This document shows, in pieces, positions 31,690 through 43,737 of a stretch of 50,294 nucleotides of DNA. The DNA comes from an uncultured archaeon (GTDB lineage: Archaea > Asgardarchaeota > Lokiarchaeia > Sigyniarchaeales > SOKP01). Both the position numbers and the translations under genes were made by a program. Every line of letters starts with the position of its first letter. Position 1 is the stretch's first letter. The DNA lies in assembly GCA_964525635.1 (NCBI GenBank), contig CAZGJX010000016.1, positions 1-50,294 on the forward strand, read 5' to 3'. Under the pieces are notes generated by a model. It had not been told where the DNA came from. It did not search any database and saw only the letters and a list, made by a program, of their open reading frames with translations.

Positions 31690-32646
31690 TTATTCATTTT
31701 TTAAATTTTTTCTTAATTCTCCTATAGTCGTTTTCATTTCAGCATATACATTATGAGGATGAATAGACTCATAACTTTCTATTTTAAATTTAACTTTAAA
31801 ATTATTTTCTAAATGAGGGAAATCCTTTTTAATGAAATTTTTAGCCATTCCTCTAATAACATCCTCAGAAAAAAGAGGTTTTAAATGTGCTCCTCTAACT
31901 AATTCTGCTTCCTCAGGCCTTTTTAAAACAGATTGTATTCTACCGGACATACTTTCTTCTATAACATCAATTAATTCAAGAATATCCACTTCATGATTTT
32001 CCAAATCCTTTATCTGTAAAATAATGGTACCTTTTGATCTTTGATTATGAGATGAAAAGGGTAATATATTAATTATTTTCTGGATATCATCCTCTGAAAT
32101 TTCAATATCTTTTCGATTTTTTATTACTTCTTCAGCATATTCCTGGCTCATCTCTTTTGCACAGGGACATACTGTCATACCTATAGCGCTTGTGCCAATA
32201 TAATAATTAAAATCAATCTCTCCCATATTTTTTTTCTTAGCAAATGTATATGAACTAACATCATAAGATTTTTGAATATTTCCGTAATTATTTTCTCTTA
32301 ATTGAACAATAATCTTTCCTTCTAACTTAACTTCCACTTTTGACGTGTAAGGGTGTCGTTGTAATAATTTTTTTGTAATTTGGTCTCCAACTCTTTCGAT
32401 AGTAGGTGTTGGTTTAAAGATAACTTCATTAATAACCTCTTCAATTGTTTCTGAGCTACGAGACATGTGGATTCCTCTTTGAGAACTTGGAAGTGAGATT
32501 AAAGCTGAGATTTTTGGATAAAAAGAGAATTTCTTATGTTCTTGAACAATTTCAACTTTTTTCTCAACATTTACAATACCAACTTTATCAATAGGCAATG
32601 TAAAATCAGAATCTGAATCTTGAAGATCTTTTTTAAATTGATGAAT
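31690..32646 (-). CDS. mptA: GTP cyclohydrolase IV (MptA/FolE2 family); probable ATT start at 32646
   Basis: QRGIHMSR, GMTVCPCA, SHNQRS, LKRPEE, F.EDVIR, ESIHPHN; frame stays open upstream of TTG 32598 through KDLQ to ATT. Confidence 0.9.
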   Translation of the reverse strand: MHQFKKDLQDSDSDFTLPIDKVGIVNVEKKVEIVQEHKKFSFYPKISALISLPSSQRGIHMSRSSETIEEVINEVIFKPTPTIERVGDQITKKLLQRHPYTSKVEVKLEGKIIVQLRENNYGNIQKSYDVSSYTFAKKKNMGEIDFNYYIGTSAIGMTVCPCAKEMSQEYAEEVIKNRKDIEISEDDIQKIINILPFSSHNQRSKGTIILQIKDLENHEVDILELIDVIEESMSGRIQSVLKRPEEAELVRGAHLKPLFSEDVIRGMAKNFIKKDFPHLENNFKVKFKIESYESIHPHNVYAEMKTTIGELRKNLKNE

Positions 32647-32927
32647 TTAAATCACTATGGAATAGTTCTATTTTTAATATTCTATGTTAAAAAAGGAAGA
32701 ATCCATTTTATTTTTTAATATTTCTCCATTAACCATTATCAAAATAATTTTTAGTACAAATCTAATTTTAATAGGTGAATTACTTTTTTATTTCCCTATC
32801 TCTATCCTAACAAAATAAAAAACAATCAATAAATAGTAAAGGTTTTACTAAATTTCATAATTTTAAATTTAAACCTATAATTATTAATCCATAATAAAAA
32901 AATATTTTTTAAAAGAAGTGAAAACCT

Positions 32928-34088
32928 ATTAAAAACATTTCTTGTCCTTATGGTTTAATTGGCGATGATTTAGAGTTTAAAGAGCGTATAAATTTAGAAA
33001 TTGACGATAATGGAATAATAACAAATATATCCTTTAAAGAACCAAAAAAAGAAATAGATATATCACAAAATAGATCTAATTTAACATTACTTCCAGGTTT
33101 TATTAATTCTCATACTCATATTGGTGATAATTTTGCCAAAGAAATGGGATATAATAAAGAGTTAGAACAAATAGTTTCAGCACCAATTGGTTTAAAACAT
33201 AGATTATTGGATAGAGTTTCAAAAGAAACCAAAATAATGGGAATTCAAAATGCAGTTAAAGAAATGTTGTCAAATGGAATTACTTGTTTTATGGATTTTA
33301 GAGAAAGAGGTATTGAGGGTATTAATTTATTAAAGGAAGCTTTGATAGATCTTCCTATTAATTATCAGATTTATGGACGATTTGAGGCAACTGAAGATAT
33401 AAGGGGTGTTTTTAATTTATCTGATGGTATAGGATTACCAAATTATAATAGAATTAATCAAGACAATCTAGAACGCTTAAGAAAACTTAAAGAGAAAAGT
33501 GATAAATTAATAGCCTGCCATTGTGCCGAAAAAAGGAGGGAAGAAAATTTAATTACGAATCTTATTTCAGATAAACTAGTTGATGTAATCATTCATGGGA
33601 CGCAATTGATCAAAGATGATTTACAACGGATTAAATCAAATGATTTATCATTAGTTTTTTGTCCAATCAATAATAGCTATTTTGGACTTGGATTTCCTCC
33701 AATCATTGAAACTCTGAAATTAGAATTACCAATTTCATTAGGAACTGATAATTTAATGACAAATTCACCAGATTTATTTGAAGAAATGAGATATTTATAC
33801 AATATCTTTAATATTCTAAATAAAAATAATAAAAATATCAAATTAACAGCAATAGATCTGTTGAAGATGGTAACTATTAATGCTGCAAGAAATTTCAAAC
33901 TTGATAAAACCATGGGTTCTATTGAAAAAGGTAAATCTGCAGAATTTTTCATAATTGATCTAAGTGATATTAATTTCTATTCCACTGAAATGGATTATAA
34001 CCTTATCTATCCTTTAATTGTTCAAAGATGTAAACCAGAAAATATAAAAAAAGTATATATAAAAGGAGAACAGGTTTTTAAAAGATAA
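32928..34088 (+). CDS. amidohydrolase, nucleoside deaminase (SsnA/MtaD-like) family; probable ATT start at 32928
   Basis: LLPGFINSHTHIGD lies in frame upstream of the ATG at 33144; HCAE, IHG, CP.NN, LGTDN, TINAAR, GSIEKGK.A. Confidence 0.85.
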   Translation: MKNISCPYGLIGDDLEFKERINLEIDDNGIITNISFKEPKKEIDISQNRSNLTLLPGFINSHTHIGDNFAKEMGYNKELEQIVSAPIGLKHRLLDRVSKETKIMGIQNAVKEMLSNGITCFMDFRERGIEGINLLKEALIDLPINYQIYGRFEATEDIRGVFNLSDGIGLPNYNRINQDNLERLRKLKEKSDKLIACHCAEKRREENLITNLISDKLVDVIIHGTQLIKDDLQRIKSNDLSLVFCPINNSYFGLGFPPIIETLKLELPISLGTDNLMTNSPDLFEEMRYLYNIFNILNKNNKNIKLTAIDLLKMVTINAARNFKLDKTMGSIEKGKSAEFFIIDLSDINFYSTEMDYNLIYPLIVQRCKPENIKKVYIKGEQVFKR

Positions 34089-34234
34089 TTAATAAAATTT
34101 AAACATTTTTTATCATATTAAAATTACTAAAAGATCAGCCAAATATTCTCTTTTAAAGAAAATTTATATTTTCATGTAATTTTTATAAAAATTGATTATT
34201 AAATTTCAAAATAGAAAAAATAGGAATATTAATT

Positions 34235-34906
34235 ATGGACGTTGAGACACCATATATAGTTCTTAGCGCTGCTATGACAATTGATGGTAAAATTGCTTCA
34301 AAATCAGGAGATCCAGAATTATCTGATGAAGATGATTGGAAAGAAGTCCATAAATTGAGGACAGAAGTTGATGCGATAATGGTAGGAAAGGGTACAATAA
34401 TAAAAGATAATCCCAAGTTACATATTAAATATTATAATCATAATGGTTATTATAGAATTATTTTAGACAGTAATTTGGCAATTTCAATAGATTCTGAGGT
34501 AATAAATTATATGCCTGAAATCTATCCTACGATCATTTGTACGACTGAAAACGTCCCAAATGAAAGAGTAAAAGAATTTAAAACAAAAAAGAACATAACA
34601 ATTATTAAATCTGGTCATGGTGAACGGGTTAATTTGTTAAAATTAATGCCTATTTTATGGGAAAATGGTATTAAGAAGATTTTATTGGAAGGCGGGGGAA
34701 TTTTAAATTGGAGTTTTATAGTAAATGATTTAATTGATGAGATACGATTAACTATTGCTCCATGGATTGTAGGTGGAGAAGATGCAAAAAGTTTGGTTGA
34801 GGGAGATGGATTTGAAAGGATGATTCAAGCTAAAAGATTCGAATTAATCGATATTAAAAACCGAAATGATTATGCTATTCTAAAATATATAAGGAAGAAC
34901 CTATGA
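34235..34906 (+). CDS. arfC: 2,5-diamino-6-ribosylamino-4(3H)-pyrimidinone 5'-phosphate reductase (archaeal RibD reductase)
   Basis: AAMTIDGKIA, VHKLR..VDAIMVG.GT...DNPKL, LLEGGG.LNWS, LIDEI. Confidence 0.88.
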   Translation: MDVETPYIVLSAAMTIDGKIASKSGDPELSDEDDWKEVHKLRTEVDAIMVGKGTIIKDNPKLHIKYYNHNGYYRIILDSNLAISIDSEVINYMPEIYPTIICTTENVPNERVKEFKTKKNITIIKSGHGERVNLLKLMPILWENGIKKILLEGGGILNWSFIVNDLIDEIRLTIAPWIVGGEDAKSLVEGDGFERMIQAKRFELIDIKNRNDYAILKYIRKNL

Positions 34907-36003
34907 TGGAATCATCGAAGATAGAATATTTAAGTAATTTATCCCTAAAAAAAATCAGAGAAAAAATAAAAGGAATAAGAGCAGAATTATCAGAAGAAAA
35001 AAGAAAAACAGTCACATATTCAAAAAATTTTACATTATCTTTATCAAATTATTGTATTAATAAATGTAAATATTGTTTTTATCATTATAAAATTCCAAAA
35101 GGGAATAATAGCAGGAATACGATTTTATTGGATATAAATCATATCAAAAACTTAACAGAAAATGCAATTGCTTACAATTGTAAAGAAGCTTTATTGATGT
35201 CGGGAGAAAGACCAGATTCTTATGATAGAGTTCAATCAGAATTAAATAAAATAGGAAAAATAAATTTTATAAATTATGTGAAAGATATCTGCAACATTTT
35301 ATTAAATCTAAAGATATTACCTCATATTAATATAGGTTTATTAGATTATAATGAATTACGGATGTTAAAAGATCATTCCGCAAGTATGGGCTTAATGTTA
35401 GAAAGTACTAGTACAAAACTTTTTAAAAAGGGAGGAGTTCATGAAAATTCCCCTGGAAAATTACCTGAAAAAAGAATTGAACATATTATTAATGCGGGAA
35501 GATTGAAGATACCCTTTACTACAGGATTACTGATTGGAATTGGAGAATCATTTAAGGATAGGATTAAGGACTTAATTTTAATAGAAAAAATTCACAGAAA
35601 CTATGGTCATATTCAAGAAGTTATAATCCAAAATTTTACTCCTAAACAAGGAATTGAATATCAACTTGAAAAAAAAATATCAATTAGAGAAATGTTAAAA
35701 ACAGTTGGAATTGCGAGAATCATATTCCAAAATGAAATTGCACTTCAAATGCCACCTAACCTTATAAGGGGATATGAACATCTTTTTATCGAAATAGGGA
35801 TAAATGATTTTGGGGGAATTTCACCAGTTACAATAGATTTTATCAATCCTGAATGTAAATGGTCAAATATAGAGAATTTAATAAAGATTTGTGAAGAAAT
35901 AAATTATATATTAGACGAGAGGCTCCCTATTTATCCTAAATATATTGAAAATCCGATATTTTTATCAAAAAGAATTAATAAAATAATTAGTAGCTTTTCA
36001 TAA
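34903..36003 (+). CDS. cofG: FO synthase subunit CofG (radical SAM)
   Basis: VTYSKN, C.NKCKYC, EAL..SGE.P, LPHIN.G, SMGLMLE, AGRLKIPFTTGLLIGIGE, HIQEVIIQNF, Q.PPNL, D.GGISPVT.DFINP. Confidence 0.93.
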   Translation: MMESSKIEYLSNLSLKKIREKIKGIRAELSEEKRKTVTYSKNFTLSLSNYCINKCKYCFYHYKIPKGNNSRNTILLDINHIKNLTENAIAYNCKEALLMSGERPDSYDRVQSELNKIGKINFINYVKDICNILLNLKILPHINIGLLDYNELRMLKDHSASMGLMLESTSTKLFKKGGVHENSPGKLPEKRIEHIINAGRLKIPFTTGLLIGIGESFKDRIKDLILIEKIHRNYGHIQEVIIQNFTPKQGIEYQLEKKISIREMLKTVGIARIIFQNEIALQMPPNLIRGYEHLFIEIGINDFGGISPVTIDFINPECKWSNIENLIKICEEINYILDERLPIYPKYIENPIFLSKRINKIISSFS

Positions 36004-36103
36004 ATAAAAATTAGAATATCTCTATTGAATTAATATTTCTGTAGGTTTTTTTTATTTATTAATAAAGTAAAAAGTATTAAGATTATCATGATTATTTATC
36101 TCA

Positions 36104-37234
36104 ATGGTTATGCAACAATATTTAAATGAAATTAAACCAGAAGTATATAGAATTTTAAAACGTGCTTTAAATTCAGAGGAATTAACTAAAGAAGAAGCAC
36201 TAATATTGTTAAAGGTTAAAGGAAAAGAATTTAACGCTCTACAGTATGTTGCAAACCAGATTTGTACTGAAAAAAGAAAAGATATTGTAACTTTTGTTAT
36301 AAACAGAAACATAAATTTCACTAATATCTGTTATAAGAAATGTAAATTTTGTTCTTTTAGTTCAGATAATTCAAATGAAGAGAGTTTTACTCTTTCTATA
36401 GATGTAATTAGAAAAAAAATTGTAGAACTTAATAATAATGATTGTACAGAGGTTTGTATTCAGGGAGGAATAAATCCTAAATTAGATTTTAATTATTATA
36501 TAGATATTCTTAAATCCATAAAGAAAATAAATCCTAAGTTGCATATACATGCATTTTCACCCCAAGAAATTCATCATTTATCAGAATTAAATAATGAGCC
36601 AATAGAAGACATATTAAAGAAATTGAAAATGGAAGGTTTAAATTCAATTCCGGGAACGGCAGCAGAGATTTTAAATGACAATATTAGAAAAATAATATGT
36701 CCTAATAAGATAAATACCTCTAGATGGACGGAAATAATTAAAGCGGCACATAAATTAGATATCCCAACTACATCTACAATGATGTATGGACATATAGAAA
36801 CATTAAGAGATAGAGTTGAACATTTAGATATTTTAAGAGATATCCAAAAAGAAACATATGGAATTACAGAATTTATCCCTTTAGCTTTTATTAAACAAAA
36901 ACCTCTCTTAGGAAAATTAGAAAATTATCCTTTAAATCCTACTTATGGAATGGATGATTTAAAATTATTAAGTGTAGCAAGACTTTTTTTAAATAATTAT
37001 ATTGATAATATACAATGTTCATGGGTTAAATTAGGACCAAAGTTTGCTCAAGTATCTTTAAACTATGGTGTAAACGATTTCTCTGGTACCTTAATGGAAG
37101 AAAATATATCAAAAAGTGCTGGTGCAATATATGGAGAGTATTTAGAGCCAGATGAGATAATAAATATAATAAAAGCTGCTGGTAAAAGACCTGCTCAAAG
37201 AGATACACTTTATAACATTATTAGATATTTTTAG
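36104..37234 (+). CDS. cofH: FO synthase subunit CofH (radical SAM)
   Basis: VTFVINRNINFTNIC...CKFC, EVCIQGG, HIHAFSP.E, PGTAAEIL, TMMYGH.E, NIQ.SWVKLG, GTLMEE.IS..AG. Confidence 0.93.
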   Translation: MVMQQYLNEIKPEVYRILKRALNSEELTKEEALILLKVKGKEFNALQYVANQICTEKRKDIVTFVINRNINFTNICYKKCKFCSFSSDNSNEESFTLSIDVIRKKIVELNNNDCTEVCIQGGINPKLDFNYYIDILKSIKKINPKLHIHAFSPQEIHHLSELNNEPIEDILKKLKMEGLNSIPGTAAEILNDNIRKIICPNKINTSRWTEIIKAAHKLDIPTTSTMMYGHIETLRDRVEHLDILRDIQKETYGITEFIPLAFIKQKPLLGKLENYPLNPTYGMDDLKLLSVARLFLNNYIDNIQCSWVKLGPKFAQVSLNYGVNDFSGTLMEENISKSAGAIYGEYLEPDEIINIIKAAGKRPAQRDTLYNIIRYF

Positions 37235-37368: not shown

Positions 37369-37435
37369 CCCATTTAATTCCCATAATTAGCTTTCTAGCC
37401 CATTTAATTCCCCAGAGAACACAAACCTTTAAATA
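37369..37435 (+). promoter_or_regulatory. promoter candidate: two 14-bp direct repeats followed by a TATA box
   Basis: CCCATTTAATTCCC at 37369-37382 and 37399-37412 (30-bp period); TTTAAATA at 37428-37435. Confidence 0.6.
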
Positions 37436-37480
37436 AGAGGCAATAATATATAATATCATACTTCAGAAAATGTCGATTGA

Positions 37481-37554
37481 TGATACGTATAGTCCAATAG
37501 CTATGGATGTCTTCACGTCATGAAGGAGACATAGGTTCAAATTCTATTGAGTCA
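37481..37554 (+). tRNA. tRNA-like element / pseudo-tRNA, GTC (Asp) anticodon
   Basis: D arm GTCC-AATAGCTAT-GGAT; stem TCTTC/GAAGG with loop AC-GTC-AT (no U33); T arm ATAGG-TTCAAAT-TCTAT; acceptor stem poorly paired. Confidence 0.6.
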
Positions 37555-37721
37555 CATATATCAAATCTTGTAAAGAATTGAGTGATTTAAAGGAGTTTTT
37601 AATAATTGCTATGGTTTATCTTTAGGCGCCTTTACATTCAGAATAATGTGATACACTATATGATTCTTAATATACTCCTCTAAGTTGGGAATTTAGAATC
37701 TTTCTAATATACATAGAAATA

Positions 37722-37790
37722 AGGTTTATAGTCTTCAATAGTACAGCTCTCATTCCAAGAAGAAGGTGCAGTTGAACTTACATCATGTAA
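37722..37790 (+). pseudogene. heavily eroded tRNA-like element (TCC, Gly-like loop)
   Basis: TAGTCT..AATAGTA D-like segment; CTCTCATTCCAAGAAGAAGGTG resembles TCCCTCCACCAAAGAGGAAGGTG in the element at 37961; weak T arm. Confidence 0.3.
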
Positions 37791-37840
37791 AAATTATCTC
37801 CAAAGTATAATTAGAATATTCGAGTATAACTTGAGATTTA

Positions 37841-37909
37841 GGGTTTCTGGTCCAATGGTAGGAGTTCCCTTGAAAGCGGAAAGTGAAGGTTCGATTCCTT
37901 CGAAACTAA
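37841..37909 (+). tRNA. tRNA-like element / pseudo-tRNA, apparent GAA (Phe) anticodon
   Basis: Acceptor GGTTTC/GAAACT; D arm TCC-AATGGTA-GGA; stem TTCC/GGAA with a C-C mismatch; perfect T arm GAAGG-TTCGATT-CCTTC; only 69 nt; 1-72 mismatch. Confidence 0.65.
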
Positions 37910-37960
37910 AATTAAATTAATGGTTGTACAAATTCCCTACCAATATTTCAATATTAGATT

Positions 37961-38033
37961 CTGCTTATGGTCTAAGATGGTAAGATATCCCTCCACCAAA
38001 GAGGAAGGTGTGGGTTCGAATCCCACTAAGCAA
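37961..38033 (+). tRNA. tRNA-like element / pseudo-tRNA, apparent CCA (Trp) anticodon
   Basis: Acceptor TGCTTA/TAAGCA; D arm GTCT-AAGATGGTA-AGAT; stem CCTC/GAGG with loop CA-CCA-AA (A33); perfect T arm GTGGG-TTCGAAT-CCCAC. Confidence 0.68.
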
Positions 38034-38313
38034 TAAAGAATTAATATTGGATATAAAAGTCCTTTCTTCAATTAAAACGATTTGAAATCATTCTTCATTT
38101 TGAAGTTGCCTCAAATAGGGAGGAATGAACTAGTACTCCTATGTAAGGAGGTTATTAGGCTTCTAGAAATGACTAAGCCGTTTCTAGTTGAAAAATAACA
38201 TTTCCCCAAACCAATTGAGGCATATCTTATATAATTTATTTTTTTTTTCCTATGCAACTTTTTAAAATAATCTACACTAAAAAGCTATAAAATAAAAATA
38301 AAAAGATAGTTTT

Positions 38314-40422
38314 ATGTTGAAAAATATAAAATTAGATTCTAAGGAACTTGAATTAATCAATAATATAGAAAAATTAACAAAAGTAAAATGTTATCCTAAA
38401 GAAAGAATTGATTGGAAGAGTAAAAAGTTAGATAAAGAGAAACCAACAAATGCAATATTTAACATAGTGATAAAAAATGAAAAAATCACTGAAATATTAA
38501 TTATAGGAGCAAGAATTCAGATATTTCCAGAATTTAAAGATATTTTAAATAAATTGAAAATGTTTTATGTAATTAGATCATCTTTAATTAAATTCCCAGA
38601 ATCACTATCTTACTTAAAAAATCTCTCCCAACTTGATTTATCATATAATGAAATTAAAGAAATACCAAAATTTATTGAAAATTTAACAAGTTTAACGAAG
38701 ATTAATATAAAAAATAACTCAATAAAAAAAATACCTGATGAAATTATAAAGCTTCCCCTTTTAAAAACCATAATTGCACAAGGTAATCCAATTGAGAAAT
38801 TTCCTGCAAATTATCCTAATTTAGATAATTTAATTAAAAAATACCTACAAAATGGATTAAACAAGTTAGAAGCAGAGGTAATGACAGATCTAGAATTGAT
38901 TATGGGAGAAGAAATTAAACAAGTTCATCATCGAGGAATTTTAAATGGATATTATCTTCAAAATAAATCAATTGTATGGTTAAGATTATCTAGTGCTAGT
39001 CTTAAAACATTACCAAAAAATATCTCTAATTTAAAAAACCTGAATTTTTTAAATCTTTCTGGAGAACCCGCGCATGAGGAAGAGGGTATTATAGGGGAAA
39101 GAAATGCAATAGAATATATTCCAAATACAATTGGTCAATTATTTAAATTAAAGTGGCTTTATCTTTCAAAATCAAAATTAAAATCTATACCTAGAGAAAT
39201 TGGGAATCTTTCAAACCTTCAACAATTATATATTTCTGATAATTTTCTTGAAGAAATTCCAGAGTCGTTAGTGAATTTGAAATCATTAAAATATTTGGAT
39301 CTTCAAAAAAATCAATTAATTGAAATTCCAAAATGGATTGGAAATCTTGAAAATCTTCAATATCTTAATTTAGGAAATAATAAATTTAAAACTATCATCA
39401 AAGAATTGACAATATTAAACAACTTAAATTATTTAATATTAAATGATAATTTTATTGATAATATAGCGGAATCAATCGGCGAATTAAATCAATTACAAAA
39501 ATTAGATTTATCAAATAATACATTAACATCAGAATCTTTGATTCCTTTATATAAACTAAAAAACCTAAAGTATCTTAATTTATCTAATAATATAGATATC
39601 TCATATTTATCAGAAGATATTGGAAAACTTACTAGGATAGAATATCTAAATATAAATGAAAATCAATTTATTTCAATTCCTACATCAATATGGAAATTAA
39701 AGAATCTAAAAAATCTAATTCTTAGAAAAAATCCATGGGATGATGAAACTTTGGAATTAATTAATAGAGATTTACAATTTATTTTAGAATATTGTAGGAA
39801 AAAAGCAACTATACATATATTTTTCAGCCATGCTATTGAAGATTTTGAGAGATTCAAACTACAAGATTTAATAAATTTTTTGGAGAAACAATCGGAAATA
39901 TATGAGATTTTATATTGCGAGAGAGATCTTACAGGAAATATTGATCAATTTATGCATGAAAATATTCCTAAAAGTAATCTCTTGTTATTTTTCGCTACAA
40001 AAAAAGCAGTCTTTAATTCAGATGATTGTCAAACAGAAATAAAATTAGCAAGAGAAAATGATATAGAAATAATACCTATTAGAACTGATGAAGTAGATTG
40101 GGAAGATTTAAGTAATGTAGGTTTAAAAAGAGAATTGGGTAAAGATTATGATAATAATTTCGATATTTTTGGAGATAGTCTTTATGATTATATTAAAAAT
40201 TTCAAGCATAATATAAATCTTTTTGAAAAAGAAAAGGCAAAAATAGACAAAATTAAATTTAAGATAAAAAATGAATATGAAAGAATAATAAATTCAACTG
40301 ATGTAGAAAGTTATCTAAAAGAAAATTATAACAATATCTTAGAGAAAATAGAGGATGATGAGAATTATAAGAAAAACATTCTAGATTTATTTAAAAAATT
40401 GATGGAAATCAAAGAAAATTAG
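38314..40422 (+). CDS. leucine-rich-repeat protein with a C-terminal TIR domain and coiled tail
   Basis: About 15 LxxLxLxxNxLxxIP repeats in two blocks; TIR: IFFSHA..D...ERDL.G.I..FM...I..S..LLFF.T.....S.DCQTEI.LA......IIPI. Confidence 0.88.
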   Translation: MLKNIKLDSKELELINNIEKLTKVKCYPKERIDWKSKKLDKEKPTNAIFNIVIKNEKITEILIIGARIQIFPEFKDILNKLKMFYVIRSSLIKFPESLSYLKNLSQLDLSYNEIKEIPKFIENLTSLTKINIKNNSIKKIPDEIIKLPLLKTIIAQGNPIEKFPANYPNLDNLIKKYLQNGLNKLEAEVMTDLELIMGEEIKQVHHRGILNGYYLQNKSIVWLRLSSASLKTLPKNISNLKNLNFLNLSGEPAHEEEGIIGERNAIEYIPNTIGQLFKLKWLYLSKSKLKSIPREIGNLSNLQQLYISDNFLEEIPESLVNLKSLKYLDLQKNQLIEIPKWIGNLENLQYLNLGNNKFKTIIKELTILNNLNYLILNDNFIDNIAESIGELNQLQKLDLSNNTLTSESLIPLYKLKNLKYLNLSNNIDISYLSEDIGKLTRIEYLNINENQFISIPTSIWKLKNLKNLILRKNPWDDETLELINRDLQFILEYCRKKATIHIFFSHAIEDFERFKLQDLINFLEKQSEIYEILYCERDLTGNIDQFMHENIPKSNLLLFFATKKAVFNSDDCQTEIKLARENDIEIIPIRTDEVDWEDLSNVGLKRELGKDYDNNFDIFGDSLYDYIKNFKHNINLFEKEKAKIDKIKFKIKNEYERIINSTDVESYLKENYNNILEKIEDDENYKKNILDLFKKLMEIKEN

Positions 40423-40458: not shown

Positions 40459-41037
40459 ATGAAATTTATAGTAGATGATATGTTTGGAAATATAGCAAGA
40501 TGGTTGAGGACTTTAGGTTATGATGCGATCTATGCGGGGGCGCTCTCATCAGATACTAAGGATAAGAAACCAATGAATGAAAATGAGCTCATAGAACAAT
40601 GTTTAAATGAATACCGTATTTTAATAACACGAGATATAAAATTAATAACTTCTCTTGAAGCTAAATTCTTCAAAAAAATGGAGGAAAATCCTGAAGAATA
40701 TGAAAAATTTGAAATGTCTATTCCAACTGAATATGGTATTATCTCACCTTGTATTTTTTTGAGAGATACTAAAATTATGGATGGAATGAAAAAAATATAT
40801 CAAGAATTTCACATTGATTTATTATACGATACAAATAAATCCAGATGTTCAAAATGTAACACTAAAATTATAAAAATAAAAAGAAAAGAAGATTATAAAA
40901 ATCTTATCCCAGAAGGAGTTTACAATTATCAAAAAGATTTTTGGATTTGCCCAAATAAAAATTGTGAGCAAATCTATTGGAAGGGTATTCATGTAAAAAA
41001 TTTTGTAGAAAAATTAAAAAATCTAAGATCAAAATAA
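40459..41037 (+). CDS. Mut7-C RNase domain protein (PIN fold with zinc ribbon)
   Basis: KFIVDDMFG.IARWLR.LGYD, ILITRD, SRC.KCN, FW.C...C.QIYWKG.H. Confidence 0.9.
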   Translation: MKFIVDDMFGNIARWLRTLGYDAIYAGALSSDTKDKKPMNENELIEQCLNEYRILITRDIKLITSLEAKFFKKMEENPEEYEKFEMSIPTEYGIISPCIFLRDTKIMDGMKKIYQEFHIDLLYDTNKSRCSKCNTKIIKIKRKEDYKNLIPEGVYNYQKDFWICPNKNCEQIYWKGIHVKNFVEKLKNLRSK

Positions 41038-41063: not shown

Positions 41064-42638
41064 TTAAGTTTCATCTTGAATAAAAGGTTTTCCAAGTTTT
41101 AGACATAATTCTGCCTTATAAAGTTCTCTTCCCAGATAATTAATGTGTGACAAATTATTTATTAAATTCAAACTTATTATTTTTTTACTAATTGCTTCCG
41201 CATTCCTACCAATAATCGTTTTGAGAATTTTATGATTATTTGAGTAAAATAAAACATATATATTATTATTGTAATGATTGATATATATCTTAAAATACCC
41301 CTGTTCATCAGGAATATAATCTGAATTAATATCATTTATAAAAATAGCATTTTTTTCATCAATTAAAGGTTTTTTTTGATGAGTTTTACCTTTAGCTTTA
41401 AAAATTTGGATGCCTTGATTTATTGGGGGTGTTTTTCTGTGTTTAGAGAGATAATTTAATTTAATACATTGTTTTAATTCTCTAACACCACCTATTAATT
41501 TTGGACTATGTTCCGTTGTAAACACAATTCCTATATCTAATTCAATAGCTATACTTGATAAAATTCCATTAATACCAACTGAATCAATATCCATTAATTC
41601 AACAACATTTGAGATTCCAAAAAATAATGGTAACCTAAGATGTTTATTTTTATCTTTATTTGTTTTGTATTTATAGAGATAATAAGCTTGTAGAGAATTG
41701 ACAATTCCAGGGGAAATTGGTGTTTCTAATATTGGATCAGCAATTAATTTAGTAAAACCAAAGTCTTTAAGCTTTTCAGTTAATTTAAATAGGTTATCAA
41801 TTCTCATAATAGGATCTTTAGGAACATAACCTTTTTTAAAATTTGTAGGTAAAATTACAATAGGTATATCTTTAGGAATATCAAGAAAATCTTTAAAATT
41901 CCCTAAATCTAAACTTAAAATCATATCAATATCCTCATTGATTGCAACTTTAATTTCCTCCGTATTCATTGAATCAATGCTAATTAAAATATTAAACTTA
42001 TTTCTTAAAATCCTTATAATTTCCCTCACCCTTTCTGGATCAGGTGAATTTGCAATACACCCTATATCTATGATCTCTGCCCCTGAATCAATATAATATT
42101 TTGCTTTTTTAATAATTGCTTGATCTGATTTATTTGTACAATTTACAATCTCAGCAATAATTGGAGGAGGGAGATTCTCACCAATTATAATTTCACTCCT
42201 TAATTTATTAATATAAAAAGTTGTTTGATCAATTTCATTTTTTGCTTTTTCAGCTTTATCTTTTATAATTTGGTTATATTGTTTATTTCCTGTTAGTTTG
42301 ATTATTTTATTCGCGGGGATTTTATTAGAAAGACTAATAAGGTCCAGATTTTTTAAAATTAAGGGAAGATCTGAAGCAAATTCAGTTCCTTTTTTTATTG
42401 GGATTGAATATTGCTCTTCTAATTCTATTGTGTCCCATTGAATAAAACCAGGAACAAGGACTAAATCATAATCTATAAGACTTATTTTTTCTAAATTTTC
42501 TTCAATATTTTTTTTTTTTATAAAAGCTGAAATAGATATTGGTATTTTTTTTAGAGTAATTTGATGATCCTTGACTGATTTAATTATATTTTTCAAAATT
42601 GGATAAGCTTGTTGGCCAGTAAAGATAAGAATTTTAAT
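41064..42638 (-). CDS. dihydropteroate synthase-like protein of the methanopterin pathway with a C-terminal DUF4346-like domain; probable ATT start at 42638
   Basis: IIAEIV, GAEIIDIG, ISIDS, IADPIL, PLFFGISNVVELMDIDSVGING, TTEHSPK, D..GYFKI, H..YLGRELYKAE; in-frame N-terminus (I)KILIFTG upstream of TTG 42596. Confidence 0.85.
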   Translation of the reverse strand: MKILIFTGQQAYPILKNIIKSVKDHQITLKKIPISISAFIKKKNIEENLEKISLIDYDLVLVPGFIQWDTIELEEQYSIPIKKGTEFASDLPLILKNLDLISLSNKIPANKIIKLTGNKQYNQIIKDKAEKAKNEIDQTTFYINKLRSEIIIGENLPPPIIAEIVNCTNKSDQAIIKKAKYYIDSGAEIIDIGCIANSPDPERVREIIRILRNKFNILISIDSMNTEEIKVAINEDIDMILSLDLGNFKDFLDIPKDIPIVILPTNFKKGYVPKDPIMRIDNLFKLTEKLKDFGFTKLIADPILETPISPGIVNSLQAYYLYKYKTNKDKNKHLRLPLFFGISNVVELMDIDSVGINGILSSIAIELDIGIVFTTEHSPKLIGGVRELKQCIKLNYLSKHRKTPPINQGIQIFKAKGKTHQKKPLIDEKNAIFINDINSDYIPDEQGYFKIYINHYNNNIYVLFYSNNHKILKTIIGRNAEAISKKIISLNLINNLSHINYLGRELYKAELCLKLGKPFIQDET

Positions 42639-43737
42639 TTAAATCACTACTTAATCTTTCTTTATTAAATGGAACATATATATCATCTAAAATAGAACCA
42701 GATGCTTCTTTTATTTTTAAATTATCAATAATACCTCTATATCTACCGTTTAATAATCCATTTGCTATAAAAGCAGCACCTTGAGCTGCTCTCTTTGCTA
42801 TTTGACTATAACTTTTCATTAATCTTACTGGTGCAATATTATTTAGAGCTTTATCAATGTTTTCTCTTAAATAACTCATATTTGCACCTCTACCTGCTAA
42901 TAAGATTTCTTTTATTTTATTTTTATGTGAAAATGATGAGGAAATTCCAAAAACTGATTTTTTAACACTTGATATATATGCTTTAAAAGCATTTTTGATG
43001 TGGTTATCTTTCTCTACTAAAATCAATATTTCCTTTAAACTTAAATCAGAATAACCAGAGATATAAGCAACCCCACCTTTATAAATATTATTCTTTTTAA
43101 TATCTCTAATTAGATAAGCAAGTTCTCCATCTAAACTTCCACAAGCTCTGAATCCCATAATATTAGATCCTCCTATTCCATCAATAATTTGTCCATTTTC
43201 AATGGCAAGAACAGCAGTAAAGGCATATCCTATCTCAACCATTATAAAATTAGTCTCTTCAGAAGATATTTGATACTTCTCAATTTGATCTCTTATACCA
43301 GTCACCGCGGTACATATTTTATCTGCCGTTCCCATATCAATTTTATTGATCTTTCTATATCTTGGAACAGTAGGTAAGTGTTTTACACTTGGAACAATTA
43401 CTCCGGGTATATTTTCTTTTTTAATTAAAGTCAAAATCTCTGCAAGTCCAATTAATTTCTCTTTTTCTTCTTCTTTAAATTTTAAAATTGTAAGGAAAAG
43501 ATCTTTTTCTGTTAAATCATTTATATTTTTTAATGGGAGCCCAAATCCACTTGGAGCAACCATTAGATCAATTTTTTTTTTTTCATTTAATGATTTGATA
43601 AGATCTATAATTTTATTTGGATTTTCCAATAATTTTTTGGTAGATATAGAAGTATCTAAAATAATTTGATCATCATCTAATGCTAAAAAATCCCAACTCT
43701 TTGAGCCAGGATCTATTCCAAGAGTGATAGGTGTCAT
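42634..43737 (-). CDS. DUF1464 family protein (ASKHA, butyrate-kinase-like)
   Basis: GIDPGSKSWD, APSGFGLP, HLPTVP.YRK.NKIDMGTADK, E.GYAFTA...G.IIDGIGG, AAQGAA.IA.GL. Confidence 0.85.
   Translation of the reverse strand: MTPITLGIDPGSKSWDFLALDDDQIILDTSISTKKLLENPNKIIDLIKSLNEKKKIDLMVAPSGFGLPLKNINDLTEKDLFLTILKFKEEEKEKLIGLAEILTLIKKENIPGVIVPSVKHLPTVPRYRKINKIDMGTADKICTAVTGIRDQIEKYQISSEETNFIMVEIGYAFTAVLAIENGQIIDGIGGSNIMGFRACGSLDGELAYLIRDIKKNNIYKGGVAYISGYSDLSLKEILILVEKDNHIKNAFKAYISSVKKSVFGISSSFSHKNKIKEILLAGRGANMSYLRENIDKALNNIAPVRLMKSYSQIAKRAAQGAAFIANGLLNGRYRGIIDNLKIKEASGSILDDIYVPFNKERLSSDLN

Follow-up and report, generated by a model that had tools for sequence, protein, structure and literature searches.

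Between cofH (36104-37234) and an LRR-TIR gene (38314-40422) lies a gap of 1.08 kb that raises a simple question: does it hold tRNA genes, the remains of tRNA genes or an RNA of another kind? The window, that is, the whole stretch of 50,294 nucleotides analyzed here, comes from an uncultured member of the Lokiarchaeia, and an earlier note, made from its sequence alone, had placed in the gap one large structured RNA composed of several tRNA-like modules. Every motif quoted there was present at the position assigned to it, and the gap proved to be free of ORFs as claimed (longest stop-to-stop ORF at most 62 codons within 37460-38222). ARAGORN made two tRNA calls in the gap, and an Rfam search gave three tRNA-like matches of 22.6-42.7 bits, the array tRNAs of the same genome mostly scoring 44-67 bits; besides tRNA, no family came near its threshold in the Rfam scan of the gap. 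The element of about 760 nt (37460-38222) is single-copy in its own genome, in which ordinary Trp and Phe tRNAs are encoded elsewhere. ARAGORN also called a tRNA-Sec gene in the same genome (C50 9907-9999). The parts of the locus are as follows.

37420-37435, plus strand: BRE and TATA archaeal promoter of the RNA; motif common to 8/8 complete copies in four genera, function inferred.
37460-37472, plus strand: 5' strand of the closing helix and predicted 5' end of the RNA, pairing with its own 3' strand in each copy.
37483-37555, plus strand: tRNA-like module M1, a cloverleaf in G000 and G002, eroded in G003.
37588-37700, plus strand: linker hairpins, including a palindromic hexamer at 37625-37630; kept in genus g1, partly recognizable in G063 and G159b.
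37722-37792, plus strand: tRNA-like module A, eroded here (D-arm and T-loop damaged), with its extension stem retained (z -3.1).
37841-37909, plus strand: tRNA-like module B on an extension stem, with a 5-nt loop and 1-72 unpaired.
37949-38049, plus strand: tRNA-like module C on an extension stem; cloverleaf at 37961-38034, no U33, 1-72 unpaired, no CCA.
38096-38106, plus strand: 3' strand of the closing helix, with covariation across genera.
38109-38220, plus strand: conserved 3' domain, with a long basal stem, a three-way junction, two hairpins (the apical one conserved, the other variable) and an A-rich junction strand.
38235-38248, plus strand: T-run, a candidate archaeal terminator judged by its sequence; comparable runs in G002, G063 and G089.
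38314-40422, plus strand: LRR-TIR gene, 702 aa, above the Pfam TIR_2 cut-off, Glu575 invariant.
40459-41037, plus strand: Mut7-C paralog of 192 aa, dedicated to the cassette; one insertion in it is predicted to contact the LRR.

The element in the window belongs to a family of structured RNAs that is rare among Lokiarchaeia. Homologs beyond this genome, which the earlier note had named as a check, do exist: with the present copy and genome included, nine copies were identified in seven genomes belonging to four genera, plus one independent metagenome contig (L118 and L119, duplicates of G003 and G089, were left out of the counts). The whole unit was present at 71-84% identity in three other genomes of the same genus, with a tandem pair in G003, and the last ~120 nt used as query led to three more genera, represented by G063, G089 and G159 (two copies in G159). 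All eight complete copies have a BRE/TATA promoter, a covarying closing helix, 2-5 tRNA-like modules and a 3' domain of ~115 nt, and the layout was the same in 8/8, running from the promoter through the 5' strand, a variable 5' part, the cloverleafs and the complementary strand to the 3' domain, with an additional 1-2 modules beyond it in some copies. The RNA measures about 760 nt here and 620-970 nt in relatives. The last three modules are positional orthologs between genera, the order A-B-C-3' domain being preserved.

Occurrence per genus was 4/4, 1/10, 1/54 and 1/7 genomes, so that in the genomes searched the RNA family is rare and patchy. The upstream neighbors differ between genera, and therefore cofH is not part of the system; this variation, together with the patchy spread, is what a mobile accessory cassette would lead one to expect. 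In genus g1 the cassette splits an F420/methanopterin gene cluster (window 31690-37234 and 41064-43737), whose genes are folE2/mptA, an amidohydrolase, a RibD_C reductase, cofG and cofH, followed by a pterin-binding protein and DUF1464.

A covariance model of the 3' domain (R1) found no further copy in 150 genomes of the class and 150 of the phylum. It should be noted that this search applied strict filters and scored only 23 candidates per genome, and that distant relatives can escape it. One match to R1 in G082 (28.9 bits) was not accepted, being AT-rich and without nearby modules. An exact 14-mer pattern run over GTDB contigs returned known loci only, plus chance matches in coding DNA, and a degenerate 3'-domain pattern gave no viral contig and one metagenome contig, identical to G003. 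A module model (R2) returned just ordinary array tRNAs plus a one-module short form in G110, where neither the 3' domain nor either protein was found. The short form (L151 505-700 in G110 and L078 13366-13560 in G089) consists of an RNA-type promoter, the 5' strand and a single perfect-looking module without a 3' domain; its loop reads CTG in G110 and TTA in G089 and would be mis-annotated as tRNA-Gln and an ochre suppressor, respectively. An ORF-free, promoter-led unit of ~330 nt precedes the RNA promoter once in G110 and twice in G089 (L078 11420-11790 and 13560-13930; L151 700-1050). These units are 72-85% identical, with a multi-helix fold predicted from three sequences only, and possibly represent another ncRNA.

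How far the gap forms a single RNA can be judged from its frame. The TATA box noticed earlier upstream of the predicted 5' end starts at 37428, 32 nt before the 5' strand, and this offset is 30-32 nt in 8/8 complete copies. The proposed pairing of the 5' end with 38096-38106 was borne out, core pair probabilities reaching 0.92-1.0 in the whole-unit fold of the present copy, with covariation across genera. In each copy, 7-9 of the first 9 nt are paired with the copy's own 3' strand, and the mean energy is -11.7 kcal/mol for cognate strands versus -6.75 kcal/mol for cross-genus combinations; the sequence changes between genera and the pairing persists. The case for this helix rests on fixed position and covariation, because in several copies another internal segment matches the pairing about equally by energy alone. 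Folding energy was weak for 37460-38110 alone (z -1.19) and ranged from z -2.1 to -4.7 when complete units were each compared with 12 shuffles.

Outside the closing helix lies the best-conserved part of the RNA, the 3' domain, which the end coordinate of the earlier note covered but its text passed over. When nine 3' domains were aligned by sequence alone, 92.6% of the cells were paired and 15 of the 34 pairs were compensatory; this pairing was reached in 0/500 shuffles, and slid registers gave 38-48%. The sequences are few and related, the structure was derived from the same sequences and the shuffle counts are not probabilities, so the covariation is strong evidence and not a formal test. 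The 3' domain of contig L121, held out of model building, scored 87.6 bits. Covariation outside the cloverleafs, a further check that had been proposed, is present in the 3' domain, the closing helix and the extension stems. As for the hairpins described between the modules, the quoted motifs are in place, but the 37796/37833 hairpin is in doubt, as it competes for its strands with the extension stems of two neighboring modules, which have cross-genus support. The linker hairpins at 37588-37700 showed some compensatory or wobble changes within genus g1. The palindromic GC hexamer at window 37625-37630, within an AT-rich linker, is kept in genus g1 and G159b and has a G-U variant in G063; it is a candidate self-kissing site, though partly able to pair locally.

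All three cloverleafs of the earlier note could be found, at 37961-38034 (42.7 bits), 37841-37909 (34.9) and 37483-37555 (22.6), the last starting at 37483 rather than 37481. Its eroded module at 37722, missed by every scanner applied, is real: G063, G159 and G089 have intact cloverleafs at this position, with which it aligns. Other genera retain, with altered sequence, the extended stem under the module at 37961; it is strong in both G159 and G089 but weak in G063. For the 23 modules inside the frame, extension stems had a mean z of -2.35, with 15 below -2, compared with a mean of -0.15 and 7/101 below -2 for the flanks of array tRNAs in the same test (p about 3e-8, kin not being independent).

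Across 30 modules, the D-stem core, the T-stem (98.5% paired) and acceptor pairs 3-7 (kept in 28-30 modules) were nearly always paired, with many compensatory changes, and the D/T elbow signature was met (U8 in 30/30, A14 in 29/30, D-loop GG in 24/30, C56 in 28/30 and A58 in 30/30). The features of a functional tRNA, namely a 1-72 acceptor pair and a 7-nt loop with U33 and an ortholog-conserved anticodon, were not met. The 1-72 pair was formed in 7/30 modules, and anticodon loops ranged from 4 to 9 nt, with 11/30 modules deviating from 7 nt; the 19 seven-nt loops had U33 in six cases and 14 different triplets, with no fixed anticodon. The tRNAs of the same genome had U33 in 28/30 and a full acceptor stem in 28/30. 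The module C loop was different in every orthologous copy, and no ordinary tRNA stands at these positions in relatives, where orthologous loops differ and are often not 7 nt long. The modules cannot act in translation, and their non-translational character can be regarded as demonstrated.

All modules share a single D-arm type, nearest to array tRNA-Val(UAC) or Arg(UCG), and it may be inferred from this sequence likeness that one array tRNA was captured, multiplied and retained for shape. The locus could instead be a decayed tRNA operon or array consisting of pseudogenes, given that the modules resemble array tRNAs, that true tRNA arrays exist in these genomes and that modules A and M1 erode within genus g1. 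Such decay is very unlikely, because modules that keep the elbow and lack decoding features sit on extended stems, unlike array tRNAs. Moreover, one D-arm type for all modules contrasts with the diversity of arrays, stems covary while anticodons randomize, arrays lack extension stems, closing helix and 3' domain, and decay does not account for the A-B-C-3' domain order shared across genera. The choice made in the earlier note, a tRNA-mimic RNA and not a decayed tRNA operon, is supported by the homologs, the covariation outside the cloverleafs and the lack of ordinary tRNAs in relatives. We have little doubt that the element represents a genuine structured RNA on which selection acts; its transcription as one molecule is an inference, no expression data being available.

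Modules that keep the elbow might also be products rather than parts. The RNA could be a precursor from which RNase P and RNase Z release tRNA-like decoys, or its 3' end could be made by RNase P at a downstream module, for which MALAT1/mascRNA provides the model. The elbow recognized by RNase P is the best-kept feature, RNase P RNA is present in the genome, and G001 and G003 have a module starting 7-8 nt past the 3' domain. However, in-frame modules have a paired leader and trailer and an open 1-72 pair, four copies are without a downstream module, and a disposable precursor leaves selection on the frame and the 3' domain unexplained. We consider this possibility improbable.

The genes that follow the RNA offer a different line of evidence. 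One LRR-TIR gene and a dedicated Mut7-C paralog accompany the RNA almost without exception, a genetic linkage that is clearly established. Full-length orthologs of the LRR-TIR protein (58-75% identity) are confined to RNA-bearing genomes, and its N-terminus was detected in 6/400 genomes of the phylum, all six with the RNA on the same contig. The Mut7-C group of the cassette (64-90% identity) occurs only with the cassette, and nearly all Lokiarchaeia have a separate paralog (22-45%). Contig L121, chosen by its Mut7-C protein alone, proved to carry a previously unseen RNA 3' domain followed by LRR-TIR and Mut7-C in the same order, with the LRR-TIR stop overlapping the Mut7-C start, and three further short contigs have a same-strand gene close upstream of Mut7-C. 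The RNA was not found within the fetched flanks of Mut7-C paralogs of 36-43% or LRR-TIR relatives of 33% identity.

Some arrangements depart from this pattern and count against a ribonucleoprotein reading. In G002 the RNA is intact, the LRR-TIR gene is missing and only the end of Mut7-C is left at the locus; at L017 3959-4190 the LRR-TIR gene and the first two thirds of Mut7-C are gone directly behind the intact RNA copy. The RNA and LRR-TIR of G001 are separated by two genes on the opposite strand, coding for a membrane protein of 224 aa and a protein of 434 aa (L016 777-2760). The short form in G110, for which neither protein was found, is a further departure. The LRR-TIR gene may also have its own promoter, an AT-rich motif that is only partly conserved. 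The RNA could in principle be a cis-regulatory leader of the LRR-TIR operon, since it stands directly upstream in most genomes, but the distance to the start codon varies from 75 nt to >2 kb, a second copy can stand in front of another copy (G003) or behind Mut7-C (G159), and a T-run follows the RNA, all of which leaves this explanation hardly credible.

A complex of LRR-TIR and Mut7-C was predicted with a score of 0.76 versus 0.00 for the best control; the runs shared at least 89% of contacts, and the partner pLDDT was at least 82. The mark applied is reached by 58/80 solved and 2/110 mismatched pairs, counts that are only roughly valid with the alignments used here. Binding of the two proteins is supported by this prediction and not shown. 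The predicted interface involves LRR residues 204-210, 247-257 and 280-286 and Mut7-C residues 87-100, and its motifs do not vary within the cassette and are missing in other LRR-TIR paralogs as well as in housekeeping Mut7-C proteins. On the enzyme side, Glu575 stands where the catalytic glutamate of TIR enzymes is expected, activity being inferred. No solved relative of the cassette Mut7-C protein was found by sequence, and its AlphaFold2 model was poor (pLDDT 59) and excluded from fold searches. MUT7-C contributes to RNA binding in animals, and its prokaryotic counterpart is described as having no known function (PMC11347159).

Two canonical tRNA arrays (11 and 11 genes) flank a 1267-aa LRR gene in the same genome (L137 on C54, 6407-16271) and adjoin an 824-aa LRR-TIR paralog, whose TIR is 51% identical to that of the cassette. 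With a Ser/Leu array on C146, the C54 arrays come close to a second full tRNA set, including tRNA-Ile(UAU), and comparable arrays occur in other Lokiarchaeia (L148-L150 and L173-L177). The cassette could have originated from such a link between LRR-TIR genes and tRNA arrays.

Does the element belong to a known class of RNA or system? The comparisons with GOLLD, ROOL and Y RNAs suggested earlier can be taken as analogies only; in layout the element comes closest to GOLLD, and in its cassette logic to retrons or type III systems. GOLLD (RF02032) similarly has ~800 nt, a conserved 3' domain with a variable 5' part and a link to tRNA, some GOLLD RNAs embedding a tRNA (bioRxiv 2024.12.08.627333; PMC12990946). 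The element differs in that its 3' domain is about a third of GOLLD's, that it embeds several degenerate modules of one origin instead of an intact tRNA, and that it is located on an archaeal chromosome with a dedicated protein pair rather than in a phage or tRNA island. The prophage or tRNA-array setting of GOLLD was not met, the element lying between cofH and LRR-TIR and the arrays of its own genome being without the 3' domain. Scanning the region at E<=10 and five homologous loci at E<=5 gave no RF02032 match, and neither did a search of five genomes at the positions of these loci. ROOL (RF03087) is likewise a large structured RNA near tRNA arrays, but construction from tRNA-like modules is not described for it in the literature examined; neither cmscan nor a genome search gave a RF03087 match, the positive controls of the genome search also giving none. 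To our knowledge, neither GOLLD nor ROOL has a known function or partner.

A homo-oligomeric nanocage is a hallmark of GOLLD, and the element could likewise be an RNA-only ornate scaffold or cage of the GOLLD or ROOL kind, self-assembling through elbows, the A-rich junction strand and the palindromic hexamer, with the proteins as fellow travelers on one mobile cassette. The size, the conserved 3' domain with a variable 5' part and tRNA-derived inserts as described for GOLLD (bioRxiv 2024.12.08.627333; PMC12990946) would agree with it, as would the persistence of the RNA without proteins in G002 and the tandem duplications in G003 and G159. On the other hand, the near-perfect linkage to one protein pair across genera is not explained, module numbers of 2 to 5 fit poorly with a fixed symmetry, and the 3' domain has about 115 nt as against about 375-410 nt in GOLLD. 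Such a cage seems unlikely, although it cannot be set aside.

Bacterial Y RNAs, the partners of Ro60, have about 100-150 nt and one tRNA-like module. Like the element, they have a long stem that bears a tRNA-like domain, their 5' and 3' ends are paired, and they form an RNP with a nuclease-related protein, as is inferred for the element; they differ in size and in their single module, as opposed to several here. Ro60/TROVE (PF05731), whose gene usually lies next to that of the Y RNA, was not found in the genome by a search whose control was detected in 2/14 cases. Retrons (PMC12673091, PMC12640716) also combine an ncRNA and proteins in one cassette with an effector under an RNA-containing complex, a defense role here being inferred, but the element has tRNA mimics instead of an msr/msd layout, and no reverse transcriptase is present, LRR-TIR and Mut7-C being the only cassette genes. 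Prokaryotic tRNA arrays (PMC4758250) share the clustered cloverleafs and are the probable source of the module, but array tRNAs are diverse, canonical and without a structured frame. A match to the manA-II motif (RF04315; 24.5 bits versus a gathering score of 100, in one copy only) was rejected, one hairpin being in common and the topology different.

Type III toxin-antitoxin systems (PMC6315513) likewise have RNA repeats in front of protein genes, separated from them by a terminator-like run. By this analogy, Mut7-C could be a PIN-like RNase acting on tRNA and the repeated tRNA mimics its RNA antitoxin. Besides that arrangement and the T-run, the invariant Asp6 of Mut7-C, the predicted toxins within the Mut7-C group (PMC5499597) and the loss of the proteins with the RNA retained in G002, which fits toxin loss, would favor it. 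However, nuclease activity of MUT7-C has never been demonstrated and its structure is TOPRIM-like, not PIN (PMC11347159); LRR-TIR sits between the RNA and Mut7-C and is the predicted partner of the latter; and the tandem near-identical short pseudoknot repeats of type III systems are not met, the modules being divergent 70-nt cloverleafs inside a frame and split by linkers. The toxin of a type III system is a cognate endoribonuclease that binds and cuts the RNA; no ToxN/CptN/TenpN/AbiQ-type protein or other known toxin family was matched in the cassette. This explanation is quite improbable. The element fails the testable defining features of GOLLD, retrons, type III systems and Y RNAs, and no description of such an RNA was found in the literature searched, the coverage of which is incomplete.

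The RNA represents a new family and is probably part of a novel type of RNA-protein module, whose function is unproven. Our main reading, held tentatively at a probability of roughly 0.45, is that the RNA serves as scaffold or decoy of a three-part RNP defense module; transcription, RNA-protein binding, TIR activity and the defense role are all inferred. The closing helix and the conserved 3' domain would form the frame of a self-contained non-coding RNA gene, inside which a single tRNA, most similar to tRNA-Arg(UCG)/Val(UAC) of the array type, may have multiplied into structural arms, each keeping its D/T elbow on a long stem and letting decoding and aminoacylation features drift. The RNA would be inherited with LRR-TIR and the dedicated Mut7-C, a predicted heterodimer, and Mut7-C, as a putative RNA-binding fold, would load LRR-TIR onto it. 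The multi-elbow RNA may then serve as a scaffold and as a bait that attracts viral or stress-related factors binding or cleaving tRNA; disturbance of the RNP would turn on the TIR domain (NAD+-consuming or signaling), as in guard-type or retron-type defense, so that tampering with the tRNA mimics, or clustering on them, would control TIR. Apart from the exceptions noted above, PADLOC gave no match on the cassette, and the setting in genus g1 is a housekeeping cofactor cluster and not a defense island, both of which speak against an RNP of this kind. The more specific form, an Asgard immune module with a multi-elbow RNA, a Mut7-C adaptor and an LRR-TIR receptor, working as decoy sensor or clustering scaffold for the TIR enzyme, is a possibility that we regard with more doubt than confidence.

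No large ornate archaeal RNA, and no RNA of several domesticated tRNA elbows, was found in Rfam 15 or the incompletely covered literature. With two co-inherited proteins and an assayable enzyme domain, the function of this RNA is directly testable, and the cassette would give a prokaryotic Mut7-C protein its first specific ligand and partner. If the proposal is true, a guard-type LRR-TIR receptor with an RNA decoy would exist in the lineage closest to eukaryotes, which would bear on the origin of eukaryotic LRR/TIR immunity.
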